Source of the DNA: a virus
Lineage: Duplodnaviria; Heunggongvirae; Uroviricota; Caudoviricetes
DNA length: 19,056 nt
Reading direction: 5' to 3' (one strand)
Virus record (IMG/VR): IMGVR_UViG_2695420589_000003
The notes beneath the pieces were generated by a model. The model had not been told where the DNA came from. It did not search any database and saw only the letters and a program-made list of their open reading frames with translations. Shown piece by piece: positions 2,851-16,785 of this stretch; position 1 is the stretch's first letter, and each line of letters starts with the position of its first letter. The translations under genes were made by a program, and so were the position numbers.

Positions 2851-3285
2851 NNNNNNNNNNNNNNNNNNNNNNNNNNNNNNNNNNNNNNNNNNNNNNNNNN
2901 NNNNNNNNNNNNNNNNNNNNNNNNNNNNNNNNNNNNNNNNNNNNNNNNNNNNNNNNNNNNNNNNNNNNNNNNNNNNNNNNNNNNNNNNNNNNNNNNNNNN
3001 NNNNNNNNNNNNNNNNNNNNNNNNNNNNNNNNNNNNNNNNNNNNNNNNNNNNNNNNNNNNNNNNNNNNNNNNNNNNNNNNNNNNNNNNNNNNNNNNNNNN
3101 NNNNNNNNNNNNNNNNNNNNNNNNNNNNNNNNNNNNNNNNNNNNNNNNNNNNNNNNNNNNNNNNNNNNNNNNNNNNNNNNNNNNNNNNNNNNNNNNNNNN
3201 NNNNNNNNNNNNNNNNNNNNNNNNNNNNNNNNNNNNNNNNNNNNNNNNNNNNNNNNNNNNNNNNNNNNNNNNNNNNNNNNNNNNN

Positions 3286-3742: not shown

Positions 3743-4010
3743 CTGTCGTGATATCGTTGCGTAGCTGTTCACGTCGGATTTCCCCTTCCTGTTGTCGGTT
3801 CTGGCGCGCTGTCATGACGTCACGCAGTACACCGGATGCGGTGCTGATGATGGTGCCGGCCTCTTTCAGGGTCCGGCTGTAATCGTCCAGTTGCGCCTGT
3901 GTATAACGGTTGTGTCCGTCTTCCTGCCCCAGTCTGAATGTCTGCCAGAGTGTTATGGTCAGCAGCGTGAGGACGGTCAGTGCCATCATCAGGATGTAAC
4001 GCACTTTCAT
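3537..4010 (-). CDS. lysB: Inner-membrane spanin (i-spanin, LysB/Rz-like)
   Basis: 157-aa ORF with one N-terminal TM segment (ILMMALTVLTLLTITLW) and a charged periplasmic part; ATG 4010 overlaps the endolysin stop as ATGA. Confidence 0.7.
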   Translation of the reverse strand: MKVRYILMMALTVLTLLTITLWQTFRLGQEDGHNRYTQAQLDDYSRTLKEAGTIISTASGVLRDVMTARQNRQQEGEIRREQLRNDITTDACARAVPDARFTERLHQHAERVRAAAVVPFHPGRADRPRTSPAVSGDAIMGKHRDMERQPHGRTGNL

Positions 4011-4544
4011 GACTGGCCTCCGGTGTCACGTAAGCACCATGCACGAAAATCAGTACGACGGTTAACCAGTCCCTGTGAGCGTTCGCCGCCGCTGTTCACG
4101 AAGTCAGTCAGTCTGTTGCACATGTCAGGCCAGTTGTGCGCCTGTGCATGTTTCCAGATAGTGGTGCGGTGGTAGTTACGGTTCTTATCCCTGAACCACA
4201 TAAGATTTCTGCATCCAAGATTAAAGGCGGCATCTGTCATTGCCTCAAACGCGGACTGTGGCATGGCGTTGCCGCTGAAGTTCTGATTTATGCAGTTTTC
4301 TGCATGTTGCATATCATTAACCCAGCGCCCGGCGACTTCCGTTTCGGTGTACAGACGATTTTCCACATGCCCGGTCGAGCCGCACCCCACGGTCATTACC
4401 CCGGCAATATCCCGGTAAGGCGTTGCGCGACAGTCCTCCCATGTGGCAATGCGGATTTGCGCTTCCGGGCTGGTCCGGAGTTTGTGAGGGGCAATGGAGA
4501 ACCCCAGCGCCACAATGGCGGCTACGGCGTAACGTTTAACGGGC
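4007..4544 (-). CDS. K: SAR-type endolysin (GH24 phage lysozyme, P1 Lyz / phage 21 R-like); start hidden in mask 4545-4562
   Basis: Visible sequence has a weakly hydrophobic Ala/Gly-rich N-terminal segment (YAVAAIVALGFSIA), an E-x8-D-x5-T catalytic arrangement (WEDCRATPYRDIAGVMT) and blocks ENCINQNFSGNAMPQSAFEAMTDAAFNLGC and FVNSGGERSQGLVNRR that match recalled P1 Lyz. Confidence 0.85.
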
Positions 4545-4562
4545 NNNNNNNNNNNNNNNNNN

Positions 4563-4855
4563 GCTTTATCATGTGTATCGTTATCCCGCAGAATGTTCAG
4601 AGCCTGACGCTCACTGTCGTGAAGTGGCCGTGCGTCTGACTGCGCCAGGATACTGGCGATGAGTTCATTGCGACGCTGCATGGCGGTTTCCATCAGGCGG
4701 CGATGTCGCCAGGCATGTAATGCAGACAGAGAACCGAGTAACAACCCGGCAAGGGCGATTTTTTCACTGATGGTCATCACGCCTATTGTGGTGGCTGTGA
4801 CTGATGCCCAGAAGGTGATCCAGTCACTCACCCGCTGAAAAAAACCTGTTACCAT
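4563..4855 (-). CDS. Y: Holin with two predicted TM segments; stop hidden in mask
   Basis: ATG at 4855 sits 2 nt after the X stop; two hydrophobic segments (WITFWASVTATTIGVMTI; IALAGLLLGSLSALHAW) then a charged tail; directly precedes the endolysin. Confidence 0.65.
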
Positions 4856-5046
4856 AGCTGTATCATCTCTCGTTGTTTTTTCTTCTCCGGCTCCGGCATT
4901 TCCACCTCCTGTCCGGCTTCCAGAAATACCTGTCGGCAGAGTCCGGGGTTGGCATCCAGCACCTTTTCGGTGACGCCCTGCGTCGTGCCGTAGTACCGGA
5001 AACAGAGCGAATCCACGGTGTCGCCTTCCAGTGTCTTCACTTTCAT
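4849..5046 (-). CDS. X: Tail protein gpX
   Basis: 65-aa ORF from internal ATG 5046 (MKVKTLEGDTVDSLCFRYYG...LDANPGL), resembling recalled P2 gpX (67 aa); ATG overlaps the L stop as TGATG. Confidence 0.8.
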   Translation of the reverse strand: MKVKTLEGDTVDSLCFRYYGTTQGVTEKVLDANPGLCRQVFLEAGQEVEMPEPEKKKQREMIQLW

Positions 5047-5312
5047 CAGCACAACTCCGCAAAGATTCGCGGGCGGCACAGAATGTCAGAGATGGCCCAG
5101 CTCACATCGCGCCACAAATCCGATGTCTGTATATCCAGTGCGTCCGCCCGGCGGTCGCCCTTGTCCGTTGTGTCCGCATCGCGGTAACGCTCCAGAATCA
5201 GGGCGCGTGTGGCGGTATAAACAGCATTGCGCCAGTGCCAGAGATTGACGCTTTCTCCGTTAATTACAGGTGCCGGAACATCGGCCAGCGTCTGATGGCC
5301 AGCCGCCTGCTG
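5046..5312 (-). CDS. L: Head completion protein gpL, C-terminal part; 5' part masked
   Basis: Open minus-strand frame ending at stop 5046-5048, located between M and X as in P2. No motif verified. Confidence 0.55.
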   Translation of the reverse strand, partial: QQAAGHQTLADVPAPVINGESVNLWHWRNAVYTATRALILERYRDADTTDKGDRRADALDIQTSDLWRDVSWAISDILCRPRIFAELC

Positions 5313-5811
5313 NNNNNNNNNNNNNNNNNNNNNNNNNNNNNNNNNNNNNNNNNNNNNNNNNNNNNNNNNNNNNNNNNNNNNNNNNNNNNNNNNNNNNNNN
5401 NNNNNNNNNNNNNNNNNNNNNNNNNNNNNNNNNNNNNNNNNNNNNNNNNNNNNNNNNNNNNNNNNNNNNNNNNNNNNNNNNNNNNNNNNNNNNNNNNNNN
5501 NNNNNNNNNNNNNNNNNNNNNNNNNNNNNNNNNNNNNNNNNNNNNNNNNNNNNNNNNNNNNNNNNNNNNNNNNNNNNNNNNNNNNNNNNNNNNNNNNNNN
5601 NNNNNNNNNNNNNNNNNNNNNNNNNNNNNNNNNNNNNNNNNNNNNNNNNNNNNNNNNNNNNNNNNNNNNNNNNNNNNNNNNNNNNNNNNNNNNNNNNNNN
5701 NNNNNNNNNNNNNNNNNNNNNNNNNNNNNNNNNNNNNNNNNNNNNNNNNNNNNNNNNNNNNNNNNNNNNNNNNNNNNGCGTCTTCTGGTGCGGCTGCGGA
5801 ATCGGCTTTTT

Positions 5812-6504
5812 TCAGGGCGCGGGAAAGGGNNNNNNNNNNNNNNNNNNNNNNNNNNNNGTTGCAATCTCGCGTTTCACACCTGCGTTCTGGTTCAGATGCA
5901 TCGCTTCGCGCAGCAGCTTCAGTGATGAGGCCATGCTGTCCGCATCGCTCAGGCCACGGCGGGCAAAGGCGCACGCCTTGCATAATTTGGCGCGCACTTC
6001 GTCCGGCATATCCTGGTTGGCGACAATTTCCCAAAGTGTGTCCAGTGGTTCGATAAAGACGGACAAATCCGCGTCGGCATCCGTCCCGGCCTGCGTCAGT
6101 ACCGGATTGCAGATTTCTTCGGTCAGCACTGTGGCAGCAGTACGGCCAAAGTTATCCGGCATGATGAGGTTGTGACGGACCGCATACGCACCAATACGCA
6201 GCGCAAGCGGAAGATCGCCGCAGTCAATCGCCCACACCATCAGCGTGGCAATCACTTCGTCCTGTTGCCCGCCGTCAGCCTCCAGCGTTCCCTCAATCCA
6301 GCCGGAAAAGTCCGGCAACAACGCTTTTTTGATGTCGGCTTTCGCGCTTCTGGCCTGTACGCCCTTAAGCCGGGCCTGTGCCAGACGCAGACGATACAGC
6401 ACCTCTTCATGCGCGGTACGCGCGGCGTGGTCCACACCTTCATTCGCCCGGCCTGCGCGCTGTGCCATCACGTTCTGCCAGTGTTGCTGTGCAGGAGTAA
6501 TCAT
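5812..6504 (-). CDS. M: Terminase small (endonuclease) subunit gpM; 3' end uncertain because it crosses mask 5830-5857
   Basis: ATG 6504 with GGAGAG RBS; the block MPDEVRAKL and overall profile resemble recalled P2 gpM; synteny N-M-L. Confidence 0.8.
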   Translation of the reverse strand: MITPAQQHWQNVMAQRAGRANEGVDHAARTAHEEVLYRLRLAQARLKGVQARSAKADIKKALLPDFSGWIEGTLEADGGQQDEVIATLMVWAIDCGDLPLALRIGAYAVRHNLIMPDNFGRTAATVLTEEICNPVLTQAGTDADADLSVFIEPLDTLWEIVANQDMPDEVRAKLCKACAFARRGLSDADSMASSLKLLREAMHLNQNAGVKREIAXXXXXXXXXXPFPAP

Positions 6505-8462: not shown

Positions 8463-8858
8463 AGTTTTTGCCCCTCTGACTGGTTCTTCAGTCATGATGG
8501 CAAAGCGTAACAGGCTGATACAAAGGGCTTTTGTTGTAAGAAAACGGCCAGAACAGGGGGNNNNNNNNNNNNNNNNNNNNNNNNNNNNNNNNNNNNNNNN
8601 NNNNNNNNNNNNNNNNNNNNNNNNNNNNNNNNNNNNNNNNNNNNNNNNNNNNNNNNNNNNNNNNNNNNNNNNNNNNNNNNNNNNNNNNNNNNNNNNNNNN
8701 NNNNNNNNNNNNNNNNNNNNNNNNNNNNNNNNNNNNNNNNNNNNNNNNNNNNNNNNNNNNNNNNNNNNNNNNNNNNNNNNNNNNNNNNNNNNNNNNNNNN
8801 NNNNNNNNNNNNNNNNNNNNNNNNNNNNNNNNNNNNNNNNNNNNNNNNNNNNNNNNNN

Positions 8859-10399
8859 CAGGTGGTGACTTTAAGGAAATAGACCTGCTGACCCGGCAGC
8901 TTAAAAAACTGCATGATGGCCAGCCGGATGCGACGGCCACAGGAAAGAAAGGCCGGGCGAAAAAACTCAAAAATCATTTCACGCCGGAACAGATTGCCGC
9001 ACTGCGGGAAAAAATCATCAGCAGGCTGGAGTGGCATCAGCGGGGCTGGTTTGACTCCCTGACGCTTTGCAGGGAAGCCGGGATACGTAACAGGATGATC
9101 CTGAAATCCCGACAGATTGGGGCGACCTGGTATTTTGCACAGGAAGCACTGCTGATGGCGCTGCGTGACGATGTGGCACAACCTTACCAGCGTAACCAGA
9201 TTTTTTTGTCTGCGTCGCGTCGTCAGGCGTTCCAGTTTAAAAGCATTATTCAGAAGGCCGCGGCTGAAGTCGATGTGGAGCTGAAAGGGGGCGATAAAAT
9301 CATCCTCTCCAACGGCGCAGAGATGCATTTTCTCGGCACTTCTGCTGCGACGGCGCAATCTTACACGGGCAATTTTTATTTTGATGAATTTTTCTGGGTC
9401 AGTCGCTTTGCTGAACTGCGCAAGGTGGCTGGCGCTATGGCAACCCTCAGCGGACTGCGGCGCACCTGCTTCTCCACGCCATCCACCGAAACGCACGAGG
9501 CATACGCCTACTGGAACGGCGACCGCTGGAACGAGAAAAAGGCCGCGCATAAACGCCAGCGTTTTTCTGTGGACTGGAAAACGCTGCATAACGGGCTTAT
9601 CTGCCCTGACCGGACGTGGCGGCAAATTGTCACGCTGGAAGATGTGGTTAATCACGGCTGGAAACACACCGATATTGATGAAATTCGTGATGAAAACACC
9701 GAAGACGAGTTCCGCAATCTCTATATGTGTGAGTTTGTCCGCGAAGGGGAATCGGCATTTAACCTGAATATCCTGATTGGCTGCGGTGTTGACGGATACG
9801 ACGACTGGAAAGACTGGAAACCCTTTGCCCCCCGCCCGATGGGGAATCGTCCGGTATGGATTGGGTATGACGCAAACGGCAGCAGTGGTAACGGCGACAG
9901 CGGCGCTGTGTCCGTGGTGGTTCCTCCGGCTGTTCCTGGTGGTCGTTTCAGAACGGTGGAGACGCGACGCGTTCAGGGGCTGGAATTTGAAGAGCAGGCC
10001 AGAGTTATTGAAGAGTTCACGTATCGCTACAACGTGGAACACATCGGCATTGATGCGACGGGCGGGCACGGGGATGCCGTCTATCAGATAGTGAAACGGT
10101 TTTTTCCCGCCGCCATCCCTTACACCTTCACGCTGTCATCAAAACGGTCGCTGGTACTGAAAATGCTGCAAATAATGCGTGCCGGGCGGTGGGAATACGA
10201 TCGCGCCGAACGCGAGCTGGTTGCGGCCTTTAACGCCGTGCGTAAGGTGAAAACACCGGGCGGTTTTATCACTTACGAAACGGACCGCGCGAGGGGGATC
10301 AGCCACGGCGACCTTGCGTGGGCAACCATGCTTGCTGTCATTAACGAACCGATTGGCGGCGAAGGAGAAAACGAGCGTTTCACGGTTATGGAGTTCTGA
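8859..10399 (+). CDS. P: Terminase large (ATPase) subunit gpP; N-terminal part masked (8561-8858)
   Basis: Long plus-strand frame ending at TGA 10397-10399 that overlaps the Q start (TGATG); Walker-B-like FYFDEFFW present; position divergent from O and upstream of Q matches P2. Confidence 0.85.
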
Positions 10400-11445
10400 T
10401 GAGCAGAAAAAATAAAAAAGTGCGCATGAGTTCACGCATTGATCTCGCTGATGCGCTCAGGAAAGAATCGTCGCTCAGTGCATTCACATTTGATGGTCCT
10501 TACCGCCTGACCGGGCATGACCTGCTGGACAATATGTACTGTGCTGATAACGGGCGGTGGTATGAAACCCCGGTGGACTGGTACGGTCTGGCAAGAGCTG
10601 CCCGGCAAACGTCCTGGCATCAGTCTGCGCTTTACTTTAAGCGCAATGTATTGCTCGGCTGCTATATTCCGCACCCGCTGCTTTCCCGGCAGGATTTCTC
10701 GGCGCTGGCGCTGGACTGGTTTGTGTTCGGTAACGCATTCCTTGAGCTTCGGAGCAATATGCTCGGCGAACCGCTTAAATTACGGCACGCCCTGGCGAAA
10801 TACATGCGACGCGGAAGCGATCTTGAATCATGGTGGTATGTGCAGGATGGCAAGGATGCGTTTCAGTTTCGTCCTGGCAAAGTGTGCCACCTGATGAATC
10901 CGGATATTAACCAGGAAATCTACGGCATGCCGGAATATCTTGGCGCATTACTCTCGGCCAGCCTTTCTCATTCGGCGGACATGTTCAGAAAACTGTACTA
11001 CGACAACGGATCCCACGCCGGGTGCATCATCTACATCGGTGCAGCGCAGGTAAACCGCGAAAGCATGGACTCCCTGAAAGAAACGCTACAGGGGGCACGT
11101 GGTGGTGGTGCGTTTAAAAACGTGCTCATTCATGCGCCCAACGGGGGCAAAGAGGGGGTGCAAATTTTGCCGTTCCAGCAGATCACCGCAAAGGATGAGT
11201 TCATGAATGTTAAGGCGGCATCCCGTGATGATGTGCTGGCTGCGCACCGCGTTCCGCCGCAACTGATGGGGGCGATGCCGGGCGAAAAAAGTGCGTTTGG
11301 TGATGTGGAGAAGGCCGCGCGGGTTTACGCAATTAACGAGCTGATGCCCGTCATGGAGGCCATGAAGCACATCAATGACTGGCTTGGCGAAGAGGTGATC
11401 CGCTTTAACCCTTACGCACTGTTAGACACCCAGCCCACATCCTGA
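10399..11445 (+). CDS. Q: Portal protein gpQ
   Basis: 348-aa ORF (P2 gpQ about 344 aa) starting MSRKNKKVRMSSR; GGAG RBS; last late gene before the presumed cos region, as in P2. Confidence 0.9.
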   Translation: MSRKNKKVRMSSRIDLADALRKESSLSAFTFDGPYRLTGHDLLDNMYCADNGRWYETPVDWYGLARAARQTSWHQSALYFKRNVLLGCYIPHPLLSRQDFSALALDWFVFGNAFLELRSNMLGEPLKLRHALAKYMRRGSDLESWWYVQDGKDAFQFRPGKVCHLMNPDINQEIYGMPEYLGALLSASLSHSADMFRKLYYDNGSHAGCIIYIGAAQVNRESMDSLKETLQGARGGGAFKNVLIHAPNGGKEGVQILPFQQITAKDEFMNVKAASRDDVLAAHRVPPQLMGAMPGEKSAFGDVEKAARVYAINELMPVMEAMKHINDWLGEEVIRFNPYALLDTQPTS

Positions 11446-11471: not shown

Positions 11472-11496
11472 CGGGGCATAAAAAATTTATGCCCCG
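11472..11496 (+). terminator. Perfect 11-bp stem / 3-nt loop hairpin (CGGGGCATAAA-AAA-TTTATGCCCCG) 27 nt after the Q stop
   Basis: Read directly; no U-tract follows on either strand, so not a canonical intrinsic terminator. Confidence 0.35.
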
Positions 11497-11870: not shown

Positions 11871-11896
11871 TGTGCAAATTTGTGCACTATTGTGCA
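11871..11896. repeat. Three TGTGCA hexamers at exactly 10-bp spacing (11871, 11881, 11891); a fourth copy at 11799
   Basis: Read directly; helical phasing suggests a protein-binding array. Confidence 0.6.
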
Positions 11897-11936
11897 TTTA
11901 TAAAATCAACTAAAAAACACCTAGTGTGACTTACCT

Positions 11937-12122
11937 CTACCACTCGATCGGCACGTAGTCATTAAGTTCCGGAGACCAATTGCACTTTTCACATCTGTGT
12001 TTTCCATTCTGGCAGATACATAAACGATAACGGCCACAATGCGGGCACCCATTTTCACCATTATCATAATCACCGAGCGACCATTCCTGCATAAGCAGCT
12101 CTTCTTCATCATCATTTAGCAT
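11937..12122 (-). CDS. Small Cys-rich (zinc-ribbon-like) protein with an acidic N-terminus; island gene 5
   Basis: 61-aa ORF with ATG 12122, AGGGGGA RBS and a Cys cluster (C-x2-C-x5-C-x-C-x6-C-x2-C); last gene of the minus-strand island. Confidence 0.55.
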   Translation of the reverse strand: MLNDDEEELLMQEWSLGDYDNGENGCPHCGRYRLCICQNGKHRCEKCNWSPELNDYVPIEW

Positions 12123-12136
12123 TAATCCCCCTTGAG

Positions 12137-12376
12137 CTATTTACTCTTCTCGGCCCTCAAAATCATACGAGAACCATCATCCAGCTCCCAATTAATTTCA
12201 CCGCCTTCTGCCATGACTAGATGCCAAACGAGTTGAGCGGCCTCGTTGGTTACATCGCGACCGCGATCATTTCCTACGCGGCGTTTTGTTCCGTCTCCTA
12301 AGTCACGCATTTTTGCCAATACGATGGTTTTTGATAGCGGTGAAAAACCAAGCTGTAGTCGTGCTGAATTACTCAC
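12137..12376 (-). CDS. Hypothetical protein (79 aa from GTG, or 57 aa from the internal ATG); island gene 4
   Basis: ORF whose GTG start overlaps the stop of the upstream 174-aa ORF (GTGA); no recognisable motif. Confidence 0.4.
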   Translation of the reverse strand: MSNSARLQLGFSPLSKTIVLAKMRDLGDGTKRRVGNDRGRDVTNEAAQLVWHLVMAEGGEINWELDDGSRMILRAEKSK

Positions 12377-12897
12377 TGGCTGCCCCCTTTGTACTGTGTT
12401 AACTCTTCCTGCTCCTGCATCATGCGATTGACCTGAACGCGTGTGCGTCGAACGGCAAAATTAAATTGAAACATGAGCCGGAACATTTCTGATGCTTCCG
12501 TGTGAGCATCACGGATAGGTGACAGGCGGTACAGTTCTGCCTCCGTAGCTTGTTGAATCAATGACAGATCAAATTGAAGTGCGGGTCTGGTACATTTTGC
12601 ACATCTGGCAGCAAGCTCCGGTATTAGTCTCTTAACGAAGGTGTTTTGCACCGCTTTGTTGATTTGTGTCTGCATCCAAATCGCAAATTTCAGCGAACGC
12701 ATAAGTTTGATAGCCTCGGGCAGCGGCAGATAGATCATGCTGGTAGATTTGGGTGGTTGGTGAACCATCTTCACGGATACGCGATTTCGCAGCGTTCGGA
12801 AAATCGTGTTCCCAACAACAGCTTCTACGGATACAGGACAGGGAGCCAGACCAGCCCGCAGTGCTTCTTTCATTAGCATGTATTCGTATTTTTTCAT
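12373..12897 (-). CDS. Hypothetical basic protein (174 aa); island gene 3
   Basis: ATG 12897 with GAGGA RBS 6 nt upstream; no recognisable domain. Confidence 0.55.
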   Translation of the reverse strand: MKKYEYMLMKEALRAGLAPCPVSVEAVVGNTIFRTLRNRVSVKMVHQPPKSTSMIYLPLPEAIKLMRSLKFAIWMQTQINKAVQNTFVKRLIPELAARCAKCTRPALQFDLSLIQQATEAELYRLSPIRDAHTEASEMFRLMFQFNFAVRRTRVQVNRMMQEQEELTQYKGGSQ

Positions 12898-12957
12898 CGT
12901 GTTTTCCTCGTGCGGGGCGACAGTGCACCCCGATAAAATTAAAAGCCGTCAAATTCG

Positions 12958-13121
12958 TCATTCAGGAAATAATGCCCGGATATTCCCTGCTATCTGACTG
13001 GTTATCTGTGCGGTTGGTACTGGCTGTGGCACGGGGCGTTCTGTCCTGGTTTGTGTCACCGATAACGCCTCATCGTCAGCCCATGCAGCCAGTCGGTAAG
13101 CCTCTGCTGGATTCATTTTCA
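12958..13121 (-). CDS. C-terminal 53 codons of an ORF starting in mask 13122-13387; candidate ParR-like adaptor by position only
   Basis: Open minus-strand frame ending at stop 12958, immediately downstream of the ParM-like gene, which is where parR sits in parMRC loci. No motif verified. Confidence 0.3.
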
Positions 13122-13387
13122 NNNNNNNNNNNNNNNNNNNNNNNNNNNNNNNNNNNNNNNNNNNNNNNNNNNNNNNNNNNNNNNNNNNNNNNNNNNNNNN
13201 NNNNNNNNNNNNNNNNNNNNNNNNNNNNNNNNNNNNNNNNNNNNNNNNNNNNNNNNNNNNNNNNNNNNNNNNNNNNNNNNNNNNNNNNNNNNNNNNNNNN
13301 NNNNNNNNNNNNNNNNNNNNNNNNNNNNNNNNNNNNNNNNNNNNNNNNNNNNNNNNNNNNNNNNNNNNNNNNNNNNNNNNNNNNNNN

Positions 13388-14299
13388 CACCCCGTCCGCG
13401 ATGAAAGTCGCATTAACTCCGCAGGCTTCGCGGATAGCGGGTGCCACAATCTCCGCCCCTCCACCGACAACCATCACCCGCCCGTAACCCGAAAAACCCG
13501 CCAGCGCGCGGATCACGCGTTGTTTCAGTGTTTCTTCCTTTTCACGAATAACCGCCATCAGGCTGGCGTAATGCGCGTCATTGTGGATGTGCTGGCGCAG
13601 CCAGGCTTCATCATGGCGATGTTCGATAATGGTATTGGCGATGTGGTGACTGGTGCGCATACCGTTAGTGGCCATCACCGACAGTACGGCATCGGCCATC
13701 AGAGAAACGCCTACGTGTGGATCGCAAAACACCTGGCTGATACCTGCCAGTTGCCCCTGAACCTTTGCCACATCCAGCGTGGTTCCGCCCAAATCCACAA
13801 TCAGCAGGGATTCAAACGGACTCATGTCAGCCAGTGCCTTAAAGCCAGCCGGAATGGATTCAGGCATAACCCGCACGTTACGGATAGTGAATGCTTCGCC
13901 GTTCTGGTACTCCACCGGGCGCATAACGTTCGCTTTTTTGCGGTTGATGTTGGCCATGTCCGGCTGTGCGTTTGTGTCGAAATACTCGCTCAGTGGCAGG
14001 GTGACAACCACATCCACCTCCTGTGGCGTGATGCCTGATTTGACCAGCGCGTGATGAATGGCAATGACATTTACATCGCTGTACTGGTATTGCGTGTCGG
14101 TTGTCTGGACAAAGCGATCGCTGACCGGATCAAAACCATAGCGCACGCCATCAAGCATGTAGTTCGCGGGCTGCATGCCACCGAACGGCGCAGACCATTC
14201 CGACTTGAAGCTGTTCGGGCTGATGGCGTTGCGGCGTTCGCCGTTCTCAGTCCATGCCAGCTTGATGTTGGTGGAGCCGTCGTCGATACAAATTTTCAT
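13388..14299 (-). CDS. ParM/StbA-like actin-fold ATPase (304 codons visible; C-terminus masked)
   Basis: N-terminus MKICIDDGSTNIKLAW closely matches recalled R1 ParM; all three ASKHA nucleotide-binding motifs present: DDGSTNIK (14261-14284), LIVDLGGTTLD (about 13778-13795), VMVVGGGAE (13451-13477); AAGGA RBS before ATG 14299. Confidence 0.85.
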
Positions 14300-14330
14300 G
14301 TCGCTTTTCCTTATGTTGATTAATTAATCG

Positions 14331-14442
14331 TTTACGGGATTCTGAAATCCCGTTTTTGCCTGTTTTGTGCGCGCTTCATATATCGCTGCGCGTTTTTTGC
14401 TCATTTACGGGATTCGTGAGTCCCGTTTCTGTCTGTTTTTTG
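14331..14442. repeat. Two copies, 73 bp apart, of a ~36-bp element TTTACGGGATTC-(loop)-TCCCGTTT-T-rich; each forms a hairpin followed by a T-run on the plus strand
   Basis: Copy 1 at 14331-14366 (hairpin 14335-14352) in the A/ParM spacer; copy 2 at 14404-14442 inside the last codons of A; loop differences are compensatory. Confidence 0.6.
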
Positions 14443-16785
14443 TTTCCACTGGTCAGGCCACCCCGCAGCAGGTCTGCTTTGCGGCGGGCGCGTTCAGTGG
14501 TTTCACTGATTCTCTGTGCGTGCTCTGCGTCGCGGATGGCGCGCAGCATGTCAGAAAGCACGGTAACGGGTGTTTTCATGGTGTTCTGGTCCTGCTGAAG
14601 TGTGGATGCCAGGCGTGCGGCGGCTTCAGGGTCTGATGCCCCCAGCTGTGTCAGATAGCTGGCGACCGGGTTATGGCGGATCTCCGTGCTGCTTACGCCA
14701 TGATTACGGCTCAGGCGCTGCCAGAGCTGCGTGATTCGGCTGTCCGGGCGGGTATCCGGTTTGCGTACAATTTCAAATCCCTGCGGTGCAATGATGCTGC
14801 CGTCAACGTACAGACTGCCGCCCCGTAACAGGTGCTGCATCTGTTGTTCACCGATATGCAGGCCGAGAGATTCAGCAGACTCCCGCCATTCTTTAGCGAG
14901 TAATTCGTGGTTATCAGGCAAAGGCCGCTGCTGTTTGCGGCTCTGTGTCCAGCTCTGCATTTCATCACTGCTGTTTTTTGCCTGTTTGTCACGAAGCGAA
15001 CGCATCAGCGCCCGGCGTTCGTGCCGTTTCAGTGAGCGCATCCATTCATCCACATCAACGCCGTCAGGGAGCTGCGGCCACGGTGCTGGCCGTTCTTCCG
15101 GCTGTTCTGTCCCGTTGTTGTCCGTTTCCTGTACACGGGGACAGTTATTGCCACGAGTCCAAGGGGCGGCAGGGCCGCCCTGAAGGTCAAAACCATTTTC
15201 GCGGGCGCTGTCTTCCGCTTCCGGTTTGCGTCTTACCAGCTTCCAGTTATCCGGATGCGTGCACACACGGGAGGATTCCCCGATGAGTGGTGACCAGATC
15301 CCGTAAATCTGTACGCTCTGTTCGCCGTAATCGTTCAGCTCATCGGCGAGGTCGTAGGCGGTGCGAATCAGGTAGTCTTTGCGTGGAACAAGTACGCCGC
15401 CCTGTTTCTCTATGTAGGTGGCAAAACATCCGGCATCAGCGGCGGCAAGAACCGCATCCATTGCGTCATCCTTCAGCCGTTGCGGGCCTTCCGGGTTGCG
15501 TGCCATCTGGCTGGCAAGGCGGCGCAGTTCACGCCATACCTGGCGGGAGGGGATGCCAAAGAACTGGAACTGGCGGACCCGGTGAAGGCGCGCCCAGCCG
15601 ATGGCGCGTTCCACGCTCTCGGCCATTGATTTTCCGGTTTCGTGGTCAACGCGTGGCTTGCCCGTTTTCGGGTCGATGCCATCCACGGCGCGGCTGTCCA
15701 GGTTTTTCCCGATGTAGGTGGCGATGTAGCTGGTTGGCGTGCCTTTTGAGCCGTCTACATACTCCGCCTTAAAGCGCGGAGTTATGTCATCGCCCAGCTC
15801 GTGACGATCTTCCTGAATGGCAATATCGCGGGTGTGGGACACAATGGTGTCGATTTCTTCCGGATGAGCAAAGACCATCATATGCCAGTGCACGGTGCCG
15901 TCATGGTGAGGCTCCGCCGTGCGGATGCCATACCAGCGCAGGCCGTCGCGGTTCAGTTTTTTGCGGACCGTCGCAAAAAACGTGTTAACCAGGTAATCGC
16001 TGGAGTCGCGCATTGTGGCCCCGTTCCATTTGGGATTCGGATGACCGTTCTCCGTTGTGGCGTGGTATTTTGACGGGCAGGTGACAGTCAGAAACACCGC
16101 TTTGTCGCCACGGGCTTCGGCCAGAAGTTCCAGCCCCTTCATGGTGGCCATCATTTCTGCCTTACGGTGAACCGGGTTACTTACTCCCGCGTAATACACC
16201 GTCTCGAGATCAATCGTGAACCCGTCTTCATTTTCCAGCATGAAACTTTTCAGGAAATCGCGTGTTTTCTCGCGCTGTGCGCGAAACTCGCTTAACGCGT
16301 CCTGGCTCAGATAGGGCGATGTTTTTCTGGAAACCAGACAGGCGGCGCGAAGTTGTTCTTCTCTCCACTCGCAACGTAACAGCCACAGTTTGCGTTTCCA
16401 CCATTCCGCACAGGTCAGGCGAAGGATTGCGCCCGGCAGCAGTTCTGTGTCCGGTTCGTGCCTCCGGTCTTTGTCTGTTGTCAGTGCGTCATAATGCGGA
16501 GGCATGGCGTGTAAGTGTAACGCCATGCGGGCCAGCATCTGATACGCCTTCAGCGTTACATCCATGGTCAGCTCGCCATCAGTCGCGCCAAAACCATCGC
16601 AGAGTTTTTCGAAGGTGCTGCTGAACATCGCCGCCGTCATGGTGGCCAGCGTCTGTATCTGGTGTTTGTTGAGTTGCGGCAGGTAAAGCAAATCGTCCAG
16701 GCGTTCACGTCCGGCAAGGGAGCGATAACCCGGTGTCAGCCAGTGTCCGTCAGTGCGATCCAGACGTTCGAATATTTTGCGCAGG
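14376..16785 (-). CDS. A: Rolling-circle replication initiator gpA (HUH endonuclease); 5' end in mask 16786-17312
   Basis: Contains EPHHDGTVHWHMMVF (HUH motif) and YIATYIGKNLD (paired catalytic Tyr), matching recalled P2 gpA; about 803 codons visible. Confidence 0.9.

Follow-up and report, generated by a model that had tools for sequence, protein, structure and literature searches.

The question raised by this locus is why a virus that is normally found integrated should carry what looks like the segregation machine of a low-copy plasmid such as R1. The window (the whole stretch of viral DNA analyzed here, 19,056 nucleotides in length) contains an open reading frame (ORF) that a preliminary description, made from the sequence alone, had taken for an actin-like ParM/StbA protein. 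Our preferred reading, to which we assign a probability of about 0.6, is that it encodes a bona fide R1-type ParM, part of a complete type II cassette (a parC-like pair of sites, parM and parR) in a P2-like phage, where it would separate extrachromosomal circles of the phage genome.

The gene is visible over most of its length and is preceded by a ribosome-binding sequence:

13388..14299, minus strand: parM, visible part, codons 1–304 of 319 (translation, Pfam, PDB match, residue check, PHROG 691 "partition protein")
14308..14312, minus strand: Shine-Dalgarno sequence AAGGA, 8 nt 5′ of the parM ATG (read directly off the sequence)

The ATG is at 14299–14297 on the minus strand, and the frame is open for 304 codons to the edge of a masked stretch at 13388. 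The three actin-fold motifs that the preliminary description had called intact were all found: phosphate-1 (DDGSTNIK) at residues 6–13 (nt 14284–14261), phosphate-2 (LIVDLGGTTLD) at residues 166–176 (nt 13804–13772) and adenosine (VMVVGGGAE) at residues 275–283 (nt 13477–13451). The R1 ParM reference sequence was verified against PDB 1MWK and locus L037, and alignment gave 46.7% identity over 304 residues. Residues D6, D7, G8, S9, T10, N11 and K13 of R1 ParM are unchanged in the phage protein, as are E148, D170 and E284 (phage E147, D169 and E283) and G172/G173, T174/T175 and D177 (phage G171, G172, T173, T174 and D176); no catalytic residue is lost relative to R1, and all are retained across ParM relatives that are 57–99% identical. 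The N-terminal 16 residues, described previously as close to R1 ParM, are identical at 12 of 16 positions (MKICIDDGSTNIKLAW in the phage versus MLVFIDDGSTNIKLQW in R1).

The assignment to the ParM/StbA family likewise held up. The Pfam StbA_N domain matched with E = 2.4e-82 (275 bits, cut-off 24.6) and the ParM C-terminal domain with E = 1e-61 (208 bits, cut-off 27.4), while the PDB match to R1 ParM had E = 4e-90. This family match is far beyond chance. Among rival ASKHA families none scored above cut-off: the Pfam search gave no MreB, FtsA, Hsp70 or sugar-kinase profile at E < 0.01, and ALP_N, at 25.9 bits, fell under its own cut-off of 26.3. A structure comparison with ParM, proposed in the preliminary description as a check, was made with an AF2 model of a full-length relative that is 99% identical to the window protein (pLDDT 91.3). 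Its top Foldseek match was 4A62_A, R1 ParM with a ParR peptide (TM 0.97, rmsd 1.2 Å), and the next family after ParM was Ta0583 (TM 0.69). The ORF is a genuine R1-type actin-like ParM with its nucleotide-binding residues all intact, and from its sequence the protein would be expected to hydrolyze ATP and to polymerize.

The end of parM and the beginning of the following gene, parR, lie in the masked stretch:

13122..13387: run of N; by homology, parM codons 305–319 and stop, a 4-nt gap and approximately the first 49 codons of parR
12958..13121, minus strand: parR, visible C-terminal 53 codons and stop, ending ...QIAGNIRALFPE (translation, alignment, PHROG 2515)

In relatives that are 99% identical, the masked ParM C-terminus comprises 15 residues (PQFALVNGLYAMDKE), near the 16–20 estimated previously. 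The 266-nt mask takes the place of 200 nt of homologous sequence in relatives; all seven comparable masks in the window exceed the homologous sequence by 26–101 nt, and one 28-nt mask replaces nothing. The apparent 66-nt insertion in parM/parR relative to the relatives is an artefact of these generally overlong masks. Because the N-run lengths differ from the sequence they replaced, the 407-aa ORF at 13076..14299 produced by the ORF lister is also artefactual: it reads across the 266 N, parM of the relatives ends after a further 15 codons of masked sequence, and a different frame encodes parR. Since the mask covers the end of parM (15 codons and the stop) and the half of parR that would bind DNA, both are assumed from the relatives to be complete in the window.

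The full-length ParR relative (103 aa, the orthologue in prophage L001) matches Plasmid_stab_B (StbB/ParR; PF10784) with E = 1.7e-24, and parM and parR are separated by 4 nt in the relatives. An N-terminal strand (RRISFYLKP) and a C-terminal N-x-x-x-L-F-P tail are conserved in four genera; the tail reads ...NIRALFPE in the phage protein, and R1 ParR ends in KNAMKLIN. By analogy with R1 and pSK41 ParR, we take the phage protein to be a ribbon-helix-helix adaptor.

The cassette is carried not by a plasmid but by a temperate P2-like phage (Peduoviridae, P88/Xuanwuvirus type). The window aligns at 86–99% with prophage L001, with a 34.5-kb circle (L002) and with phage P88, and its P2-type gene A, portal Q, terminase P and the genes for capsid, tail and lysis follow the order known from P2. 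The parM-parR cassette lies immediately 3′ of gene A, within the variable Q–A hotspot, and is followed by variable cargo:

14376..16785, minus strand: gene A (replication endonuclease, Phage_GPA), visible part (Pfam PF05840, 4.5e-131; annotation in relatives)
12373..12897, minus strand: 174-aa ORF with no function assigned, directly 3′ of parR; variable hotspot cargo, different from the gene in L001 and L002
12137..12376, minus strand: DUF7446 cargo ORF (phrog_1578)
11937..12122, minus strand: 61-aa Cys-rich cargo ORF (phrog_24897, unknown function)
11872..11887, minus strand: terminator-like hairpin and T-run, the first convincing one on the sense strand after gene A, parM, parR and cargo
10399..11445, plus strand: portal gene Q, at the opposite border of the P2 Q–A variable hotspot

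The 174-aa ORF had no Pfam, PADLOC or PHROG match, and the match of the 61-aa ORF to Zn_ribbon_IS1595 was below threshold (E = 0.0053, 17.1 bits, cut-off 25.4). Gene A and parM have the same orientation with a gap of 76 nt. There is no sense-strand terminator between them, which makes co-transcription with the early replication operon plausible.

The cassette is already known, because Rousset et al. 2022 (Cell Host Microbe; PMC9122126) reported a putative plasmid partitioning system in about a quarter of P2-like phages. Their Table S5 (PMC9122126) places StbA and Plasmid_stab_B between Q and A and includes ParR WP_000211275, an accession that occurs in L001; the system in the P2 hotspot is the same as ours, with no difference in kind. 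Near-identical proteins are, moreover, annotated as "plasmid segregation protein ParM" in RefSeq, phage P88 and PHROGs. As a gene call, parM is real, looks functional by its sequence, and is routine. The present analysis contributes a candidate cis site, locates the junction within gene A, examines selection and describes a phage clade that spans several genera. The phage setting, as opposed to a plasmid one, did not figure in the preliminary description and is the sole non-routine aspect of the finding.

Upstream of parM are two 42-nt repeats, each with a palindrome:

14328..14369: proximal repeat, with the 20-bp palindrome ACGGGATT-N4-AATCCCGT (14334–14353), centred ~43 bp upstream of the parM ATG
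14401..14442: distal repeat, with the second palindrome (14407–14426), 73 bp from the first and within the last 30 codons of gene A

The proximal repeat is a candidate for the ParR operator and one half of parC, and the distal repeat for the other half; ParR would bind the palindromes and a promoter would lie there, although the site gave no match to a sigma-70 consensus promoter, and the pair may be only an operator. Across the whole 34.5-kb phage genome, the 20-bp palindromes occur solely upstream of parM, and they are at fixed positions in essentially all of the 80 best viral contigs. A GGG-N10-CCC pair at approximately −128 and −55, with a spacing of 72–73 bp, is also present in Plesiomonas and Hafnia phages, in which ParM is 61–63% identical; palindromes of this form were not seen in the Serratia relatives. 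Within the E. coli clade there are two ParR types (103 and 104 aa) with divergent C-terminal halves, which have RRISFYLKP and the palindromic sites in common. Co-variation of ParR and the candidate parC is uninformative there.

Two other explanations of the palindromes were considered and rejected. A consensus scan calls them as intrinsic terminators on the antisense (plus) strand only, and the sense side is followed by AAA with no T-run. In Plesiomonas, the arms are down to 4 bp, yet the GGG-N10-CCC spacing and the 72-bp distance are retained; a protein-binding site would fit these features better than a terminator. Nor are the palindromes a part of gene A or ori: in prophages that have a 94–97% identical gene A and no parMR, homology is lost at ~14465, upstream of both repeats. 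The palindromes are missing, along with parMR, from these P2-like prophages, and their gene A protein is 921 aa long, versus 946 aa in phages with parMR. According to the junction alignment, the 3′ tail of gene A (from ~14465 to 14376) was contributed by the par cassette.

The same DNA was found in 1304 of 5426 complete E. coli genomes (~24%). The low-copy plasmid that typically carries a ParMRC system was not the carrier here: 1442 of the 1444 copies were chromosomal and two were on plasmids, so any extrachromosomal substrate would be transient. Among the 80 best viral-contig copies, the ParM ORF is intact (319 aa) in all 80 and ParR in 77; the codon variants of ParM comprise 161 synonymous and 48 nonsynonymous ones. 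Pairwise dN/dS is 0–0.30. parM is clearly under purifying selection. The preliminary description had seen a functional protein rather than a decayed remnant, and the residues, the fold, the intact ORFs, the excess of synonymous variants and the accompanying parR all agree with that view, at the level of predicted activity.

ParM relatives that are 57–63% identical, in Plesiomonas, Hafnia and Serratia, are likewise located beside gene A. All eight ParMs with at least 57% identity adjoin gene A, whereas all those with 53% or less lack gene A and portal within 6 kb. The tree excludes L049, a partial copy from a 44-kb Apirhabdus plasmid that seems to be disrupted, has no gene A and is 62–63% identical over an incomplete match. 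By neighbor joining (NJ, implemented in numpy), the phage-linked ParMs formed one clade, with a bootstrap of 402 out of 500 replicates, apart from the non-phage (plasmid-type) ParMs. The clade spans Escherichia, Salmonella, Hafnia, Plesiomonas and Serratia.

Compared to ParMRC (StbA/StbB) of R1/NR1, the phage system has a ParM of the same family and fold, the same order of cis site (a candidate one in the phage), parM and parR, and a Plasmid_stab_B adaptor with a similar C-terminal tail. It differs in being carried by a P2-like phage that integrates, where R1 is a low-copy plasmid, and its ParMs form a separate clade. R1 parC consists of two blocks of five A/C-rich 11-bp iterons around the promoter, whereas the phage element consists of two 20-bp palindromes that are 73 bp apart and overlap the end of gene A; the candidate centromere would therefore have two sites (four half-sites) versus ten iterons in R1.

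There are two precedents on integrated elements. SrpMRC (Carraro et al. 2015; PMC4489591) stabilizes excised, rolling-circle-replicating SXT/R391 ICEs and reduces loss of the element; it, too, is a type II partition system on a normally integrated element, and its adaptor binds repeats that precede the gene for the ATPase. However, SrpM is distant from R1 ParM, SrpR is without a recognisable ParR domain, and the carrier is a conjugative element, not a virus, in which expression is tied to the int operon and SetCD (PMC4489591). In the Corynebacterium glutamicum prophage CGP3, AlpA and AlpC provide a link between actin-like filaments and the circular phage DNA (Donovan et al. 2015; PMC4446434). 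This is also a filament former of an integrated prophage, with an adaptor that binds its own upstream region and with early induction, but AlpC, which comes from a Gram-positive host, is divergent among the Alps, and what has been shown for it is that efficient replication requires it, not that it partitions DNA (PMC4446434). AlpC has no close sequence relationship to the phage ParM, which is near-canonical R1-type.

Our search of the literature found no experiment on a P2-phage ParMRC, and the following mechanism is proposed from the features described above. ParR would bind both 20-bp palindromes of the pair that precedes parM with a spacing of 73 bp, and would probably also repress a promoter overlapping the proximal palindrome. 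Its C-terminal tail (...NIRALFPE) would dock into ATP-bound ParM and cap the growing filament ends, and bipolar growth of the filament would drive sister circular phage genomes apart. Since this prophage family is almost always integrated, the substrate of ParM would be an extrachromosomal circle. We infer that ParMRC would act when such circles exist during the phage life cycle: after infection and prior to integration, after excision or induction, or in rare episomal carriage. The expected gain would be delivery of a copy to both daughter cells, or to well-separated replication or packaging sites.

It is possible, as a tentative extension of this reading, that the cassette is not a borrowed plasmid-maintenance device but an old, phage-adapted cytoskeletal module that moves or separates phage circles derived from rolling-circle replication; its features would be a monophyletic ParM clade, a minimal centromere of two sites fused to the 3′ end of gene A, and co-transcription with the early operon. 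Such a module might act at the lysis-lysogeny decision, so that both daughters become lysogens, or at induction.

A purely lytic function, in which ParM filaments would serve efficient replication and packaging by placing or spreading the replicating circular monomers, and not inheritance at division, appears unlikely to us. The orientation of parM, its 76-nt distance from gene A and the lack of a sense terminator make an early lytic transcript likely, the position beside gene A is conserved in four genera, and P2-type phages package from circular monomers, all of which would suit such an organizer. AlpAC in CGP3 provides a precedent (PMC4446434). On the other hand, about three quarters of P2-like phages are without the cassette (PMC9122126), and closely related gene A alleles exist without parMR, which indicates that parMR is dispensable for replication as such. 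Furthermore, ParM is R1-type, its adaptor is of the plasmid type, and the fold of ParM shows nothing phage-specific.

We consider it quite improbable that the cassette allows P2-like phages to persist for many generations as low-copy plasmids without integration, even though this is the canonical function of ParMRC and was put forward explicitly by Rousset et al. 2022 (PMC9122126). A 34,461-bp circular "plasmid" record does comprise the entire phage, there is a 26.8-kb Shigella record, some GenBank phage accessions fall in the range of complete-genome projects (which may hint at separately assembled circles), and the Plesiomonas relative is on a 32-kb, phage-sized contig. However, the record of the circle starts ~18 nt from the att crossover point of the integrated copies, which an excised circle or an assembly-graph bubble would fit equally; a search of complete genomes for intact attP as a sign of episomes was uninformative, as a match that runs over the start of a circular record comes out split; integrated copies break at query position 432. 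All examined elements retain the integrase and were found integrated, and the two plasmid-borne places among 1444 are few. P2-like records in PLSDB were too few for an enrichment analysis (n = 7, six with ParM) and are mostly very large replicons; the large "plasmids" (0.2–1.4 Mb) look like prophages within other replicons or misassigned chromosome pieces. Because the P2 gene A protein initiates replication in rolling-circle mode, the phage would not be expected to settle into a stable low-copy theta plasmid state, and repressor-controlled, gene A-driven rolling-circle replication offers no obvious plasmid replicon.

The Q–A hotspot is home to many validated defence systems (PMC9122126), and the genes downstream of parR are variable, as would be expected if the cassette were competition or defence cargo that excludes related phages, satellites or plasmids, for example through shared parC/ParR incompatibility. 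This is most improbable: neither ParM, ParR nor the three downstream ORFs had a PADLOC match, StbA is absent from the tested systems in Table S2 of Rousset et al., who classed the cassette under "other functions" (PMC9122126), and, unlike swappable cargo, the cassette never leaves the edge next to gene A and shows vertical conservation. That parMR is an inert passenger, a captured plasmid module now doing nothing for the phage, is hardly credible: most P2-like phages do lack it (PMC9122126) and shorter ParM clusters of 188–261 aa, with several hundred members each and some on long contigs, exist in the protein database, but the 80 intact ORFs with their ~3:1 synonymous excess, the retained catalytic residues, the co-conservation of ParR and palindromes and the age of a clade spanning five genera all argue against it.

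The preferred reading of an R1-type ParM that separates phage circles thus places a plasmid-like segregation machine on an integrating virus, in ~24% of complete E. coli genomes and under purifying selection. If the cassette is indeed a phage-adapted module, it would correspond to AlpAC in a Gram-negative host that is amenable to genetics. Phage P88 in E. coli K-12 or C would be a suitable setting in which to ask what partition gives an integrating phage.

The parM reading frame opens with an ATG at 14299-14297 on the minus strand, with AAGGA just upstream at 14312-14308, and reading of the sequence showed it to be free of stops down to 13388, where a 266-nt run of N (13122-13387) begins. The 304 visible residues include all three nucleotide-binding motifs that the preliminary description had reported as intact: DDGSTNIK (residues 6-13), LIVDLGGTTLD (166-176) and VMVVGGGAE (275-283). 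ParM has 319 aa in 99%-identical relatives, with the C-terminal end PQFALVNGLYAMDKE, so that 15 codons and the stop are masked in the window, near the 16-20 residues estimated earlier. A 407-aa ORF from 13076 to 14299, proposed by an ORF tool, was rejected as an artefact of translated N. The 266-nt mask stands for 200 nt of homologous DNA in two close relatives. This run and six others (2013-2051, 2209-2779, 2851-3285, 5313-5777, 5830-5857 and 8561-8858) are too long by 26-101 nt compared to the homologous sequence of close relatives, and the 28-nt run at 5830-5857 stands for no sequence in them at all. Frames and lengths across the masks of the window are therefore meaningless. One private change, T42M (nt 14176-14174), gives GGMQPANY where the compared E. 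coli-clade relatives have GGTQPANY; residue 42 lies in a loop that varies between ParM lineages.

In Pfam searches, ParM matched StbA_N (E=2.4e-82, 275 bits) and the ParM C-terminal domain (E=1e-61), far ahead of ALP_N, the only other actin-like model to match, which scored below its cut-off. None of the MreB, FtsA, Hsp70 or sugar-kinase Pfam models matched at E<0.01, and no NCBIfam equivalog was found. Among PDB sequences, R1 ParM entries came top (E=4e-90, residues 2-292). A MAFFT alignment gave 46.7% identity to R1 ParM, and the R1 residues D6, D7, G8, S9, T10, N11, K13, E148, D170, G172, G173, T174, T175, D177 and E284 are kept; R1 D223 is replaced by N in the window and the other phage copies, those from Serratia excepted. 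The R1 reference was verified twice, being the same as in the PDB alignment and identical at 320/320 residues to the ParM of one relative's locus (L037). An AlphaFold2 model was built from an alignment of 33 sequences for P0001, the full-length representative of its cluster and 99% identical to the protein of the window (mean pLDDT 91.3, pTM 0.89). The first Foldseek match of this model in the PDB was 4A62_A, R1 ParM with the ParR C-terminal peptide (TM 0.97, rmsd 1.2 Å), followed by other R1 ParM states; Ta0583, pCBH ParM, AlfA, MreB and DnaK had TM scores of at most 0.7. By every measure of sequence and fold the gene is a member of the ParM/StbA family, and neither a better match to another ASKHA family nor a loss of catalytic residues, which had been named as grounds for rejecting the assignment, was found.

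The carrier is a P2-like phage and not a plasmid, the carrier called for by the usual definition of a ParMRC system. A 1.07-kb stretch of parM and its upstream DNA is present at 95-99% identity in 1304 of 5426 complete E. coli genomes, where 1442 of its 1444 places are chromosomal, and only seven PLSDB records contain it. In E. coli O26:H11 11368 (L001), parM lies within a prophage adjoining btuC with a P2-type gene set comprising tail, baseplate, lysis, capsid, terminase, portal Q, gene A and early genes, as well as cox/apl-type and CI-type regulators and an integrase. A 34,461-bp circular "plasmid" record (L002) is a complete phage of the same kind. The gene also occurs in 14 GenBank phage records at 96.7-98.8% identity, including Escherichia phage P88 (Peduoviridae, Xuanwuvirus) and Citrobacter phage phiSM, and in PHROGs both ParM (phrog_691) and ParR (phrog_2515) are labelled "partition protein". 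The window aligned with these phages from the tail genes through the early region, without host flank, and parM sits in the variable region that P2-like phages have between Q and A, the "tin/old" hotspot.

Features around parM in the window, in minus-strand order
Stop at 14376, minus strand: gene A, P2-type replication endonuclease (Phage_GPA, E=4.5e-131)
76 nt: spacer between gene A and parM
14299-13388 (visible part), minus strand: parM, between the spacer and the mask
End at 12958, minus strand: parR, after the mask
12373-12897, 12137-12376 and 11937-12122, minus strand: three small ORFs beyond parR
11887-11872, minus strand: terminator-like hairpin beyond the small ORFs
Between the hairpin and gene Q: cos/intergenic region
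10399-11445, opposite orientation to parM: portal gene Q

A perfect 11-bp inverted repeat (CGGGGCATAAA/TTTATGCCCCG) at 11472-11496, just past the portal gene stop, probably terminates the Q-P late operon, pointing at the hotspot. The lysis module (3776-4851) is unlike that of L001 and L002, the M15 metallopeptidase endolysin being replaced by a minus-strand ORF within 4007-5062 that, judged by eye, resembles a lysozyme-type endolysin in its C-terminal part; if this likeness holds, the difference would be typical mosaicism. Among the relatives, a phage-sized Plesiomonas shigelloides contig (L005, WEKF01000002.1, 32,167 bp) has its integrase 141 nt from one end; it may represent a P2-like phage in episomal form or an assembly break at att. 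Contigs with Gram-positive labels, from Vagococcus sp. (L012), Streptomyces morookaense (L039) and Clostridiales/Lachnospiraceae MAGs (L040 and L046), contain P2 prophage DNA of the E. coli type or a parMR locus identical to that of R1, and almost certainly reflect assembly contamination or mis-binning.

Among the best 80 of 254 IMG/VR relatives, the 319-aa ParM ORF was intact in all 80 and ParR was full-length in 77. The 65 distinct parM DNA sequences contained 161 synonymous and 48 nonsynonymous codon variants, and pairwise dN/dS among five copies ranged from 0 to 0.30. Shorter ParM clusters, of 188-261 aa and hundreds of members, are also in the protein database, in part from long contigs, and ParM may be truncated in part of the population. 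The closest ParM relatives outside E. coli are from Plesiomonas (63%), Hafnia (61%) and Serratia (58%), where parM lies directly behind Phage_GPA and ahead of Plasmid_stab_B in integrase-bearing P2-like prophages. In a neighbourhood scan of one genome per species, gene A adjoined parM in 8/8 cases with ParM at least 57% identical to that of the window, while no gene A or portal was found within 6 kb in any scanned case at 53% or below. A partial ParM from an Apirhabdus plasmid (62-63%, incomplete match) also lacked both neighbours; it fell under the length cut-off and was left out of the tree. In a neighbour-joining tree, the gene A-linked ParMs formed one clade, split from the rest with a bootstrap of 402/500, and the cassette always lies at the hotspot edge nearest gene A. 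This phage-only clade and its constant linkage to gene A indicate that the cassette is a long-standing component of a subset of Peduoviridae, kept both vertically and laterally.

Upstream of parM are two 42-nt elements (14328-14369 and 14401-14442), 81% identical and 73 nt apart, each centred on a 20-bp palindrome, ACGGGAyT-N4-ArTCCCGT, that occurs nowhere else in the window or in the complete 34.5-kb phage genome. The distal copy falls within the last 30 or so codons of gene A (14376-14466, ending in TSGNKKQTETGLTNPVNEQKTRSDI and the stop), all of which come from par-cassette DNA. In P2-like prophages that lack parMR and have a 94-97% identical gene A, homology ends at about 14465, upstream of both repeats, and the A protein has 921 aa and a different tail, compared to 946 aa with parMR. 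The repeats are thus part of the par cassette, which supplies the gene A tail and places the left recombination junction of the hotspot inside gene A. Both palindromes keep fixed positions in essentially all of the best 80 E. coli-clade viral contigs; they vary mostly in the four central nt and at the outermost base, and now and then by one change within the conserved arms. A GGG-N10-CCC pair lies at -125/-52 from the ATG in the window, at -131/-59 in Plesiomonas and at -128/-55 in Hafnia (spacing 72 and 73 bp), in phages whose ParM is only 61-63% identical to that of the window, so that the layout is deeply conserved. The Plesiomonas sites have almost lost their hairpin potential (4-bp arms) and kept the half-site spacing, a pattern better explained by protein binding than by an RNA hairpin. 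In the Serratia relatives, AAAC(G/C)G motifs remain at -124 and -52, but the repeats are different. The palindrome pair differs from the classical A/C-rich iteron blocks of an R1-type locus and from the 11-bp iterons around a TATAAT promoter on the 44-kb Apirhabdus plasmid. No consensus promoter was detected at the palindrome region. We consider the pair a candidate operator/centromere, two sites being few for a centromere.

The ParR orthologue in L001 has 103 aa (Plasmid_stab_B, 1.7e-24); in the window, 53 residues are visible, the C-terminal half, ending in QIAGNIRALFPE. ParRs of the E. coli, Plesiomonas, Hafnia and Serratia phages share an N-terminal strand, (T/N)R(R/K)(I/V)SFYL(K/N)P, and an extreme C-terminus, N-x-x-x-L-F-P; R1 ParR ends in KKNAMKLIN. 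R1 ParR binds ParM through its C-terminal helix, as seen in 4A62, the structure that also best matched our model. The gene is part of a ParMRC-type locus, with the adaptor present and a plausible but atypical candidate centromere. Two ParR types, of 103 and 104 aa, are about 54% identical overall and have the N-terminal strand and a final LFP/FFP motif in common; the variation is seen in L011 (Escherichia albertii) and about 19 of the best 80 IMG/VR loci (e.g., L100 and L114). Both types are paired with 99-100% identical ParM and the same palindromes, suggesting recombination within parR. The cargo past parR is swappable, with HicAB in Serratia and different hypotheticals in E. coli. That of the window (11899-12956) differs from those of the O26 prophage and phage P88, and encodes a 174-aa protein without a family match, a DUF7446 protein (phrog_1578) and a Cys-rich, weakly zinc-ribbon-like 61-aa protein (phrog_24897, function unannotated; sub-threshold zinc-ribbon Pfam match). 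Only the 174-aa ORF and parR were matched (97%) in complete E. coli genomes, where an ead/Ea22-like gene comes next.

In R1, ATP-bound ParM builds dynamically unstable double filaments, whose ends are captured and stabilised by parC-bound ParR through its C-terminal tail, and paired filaments drive two parC-bearing DNA molecules apart. The sequence-level needs for such a mechanism are all there: active site, fold, ParR tail and a candidate upstream cis site. By analogy, ATP-bound phage ParM would form similar unstable double filaments, ParR on the candidate parC would capture and stabilise their ends through its tail, and paired filaments would separate two phage DNAs. With a carrier that is almost always integrated, what matters is which DNA the system acts on. 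We propose that this would be the extrachromosomal circular phage genome whenever present: once infection and limited early replication have taken place, ahead of integration; after excision or induction; or in rare episomal carriage. We give this reading, with all of these stages included, a probability of about 0.6. No sense-strand terminator was found between gene A and parM, which fits expression with the early replication operon, and the proximal palindrome may contain a promoter that ParR represses. Like this phage, the carriers of two experimental precedents are integrating elements: in SXT/R391 ICEs, SrpMRC stabilises the element in its excised state, in which it replicates by rolling circle (PMC4489591), and in prophage CGP3, efficient replication needs AlpAC, which links circular phage DNA to actin-like filaments (PMC4446434).

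A purely lytic organiser seems unlikely, since most P2-like phages manage without the cassette, as do close gene A alleles. The stable plasmid lifestyle suggested by Rousset et al. 2022 (PMC9122126) is somewhat less likely still, as only 2/1444 copies were plasmid-borne and integrases are ubiquitous. A role in defence or incompatibility is very improbable, with no PADLOC match for the cassette, and an inert passenger, contradicted by the selection data, even more so.

Rousset et al. analysed exactly the Q-A hotspot of P2-like phages, and their Table S5 gives "StbA + Plasmid_stab_B (+ hypotheticals)" arrangements that include the L001 ParR accession; StbA is absent from their table of defence-tested systems (PMC9122126). 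The window cassette is the same entity, and the finding is therefore already known; no functional study of it was found in the open-access literature. The present analysis adds to it in small steps: a palindromic site in two parts, a cassette junction that lies in gene A, purifying selection and a phage clade that spans genera. None of this would surprise a specialist, and what such an actin-like machine for DNA partition does for a phage that integrates could readily be addressed experimentally.
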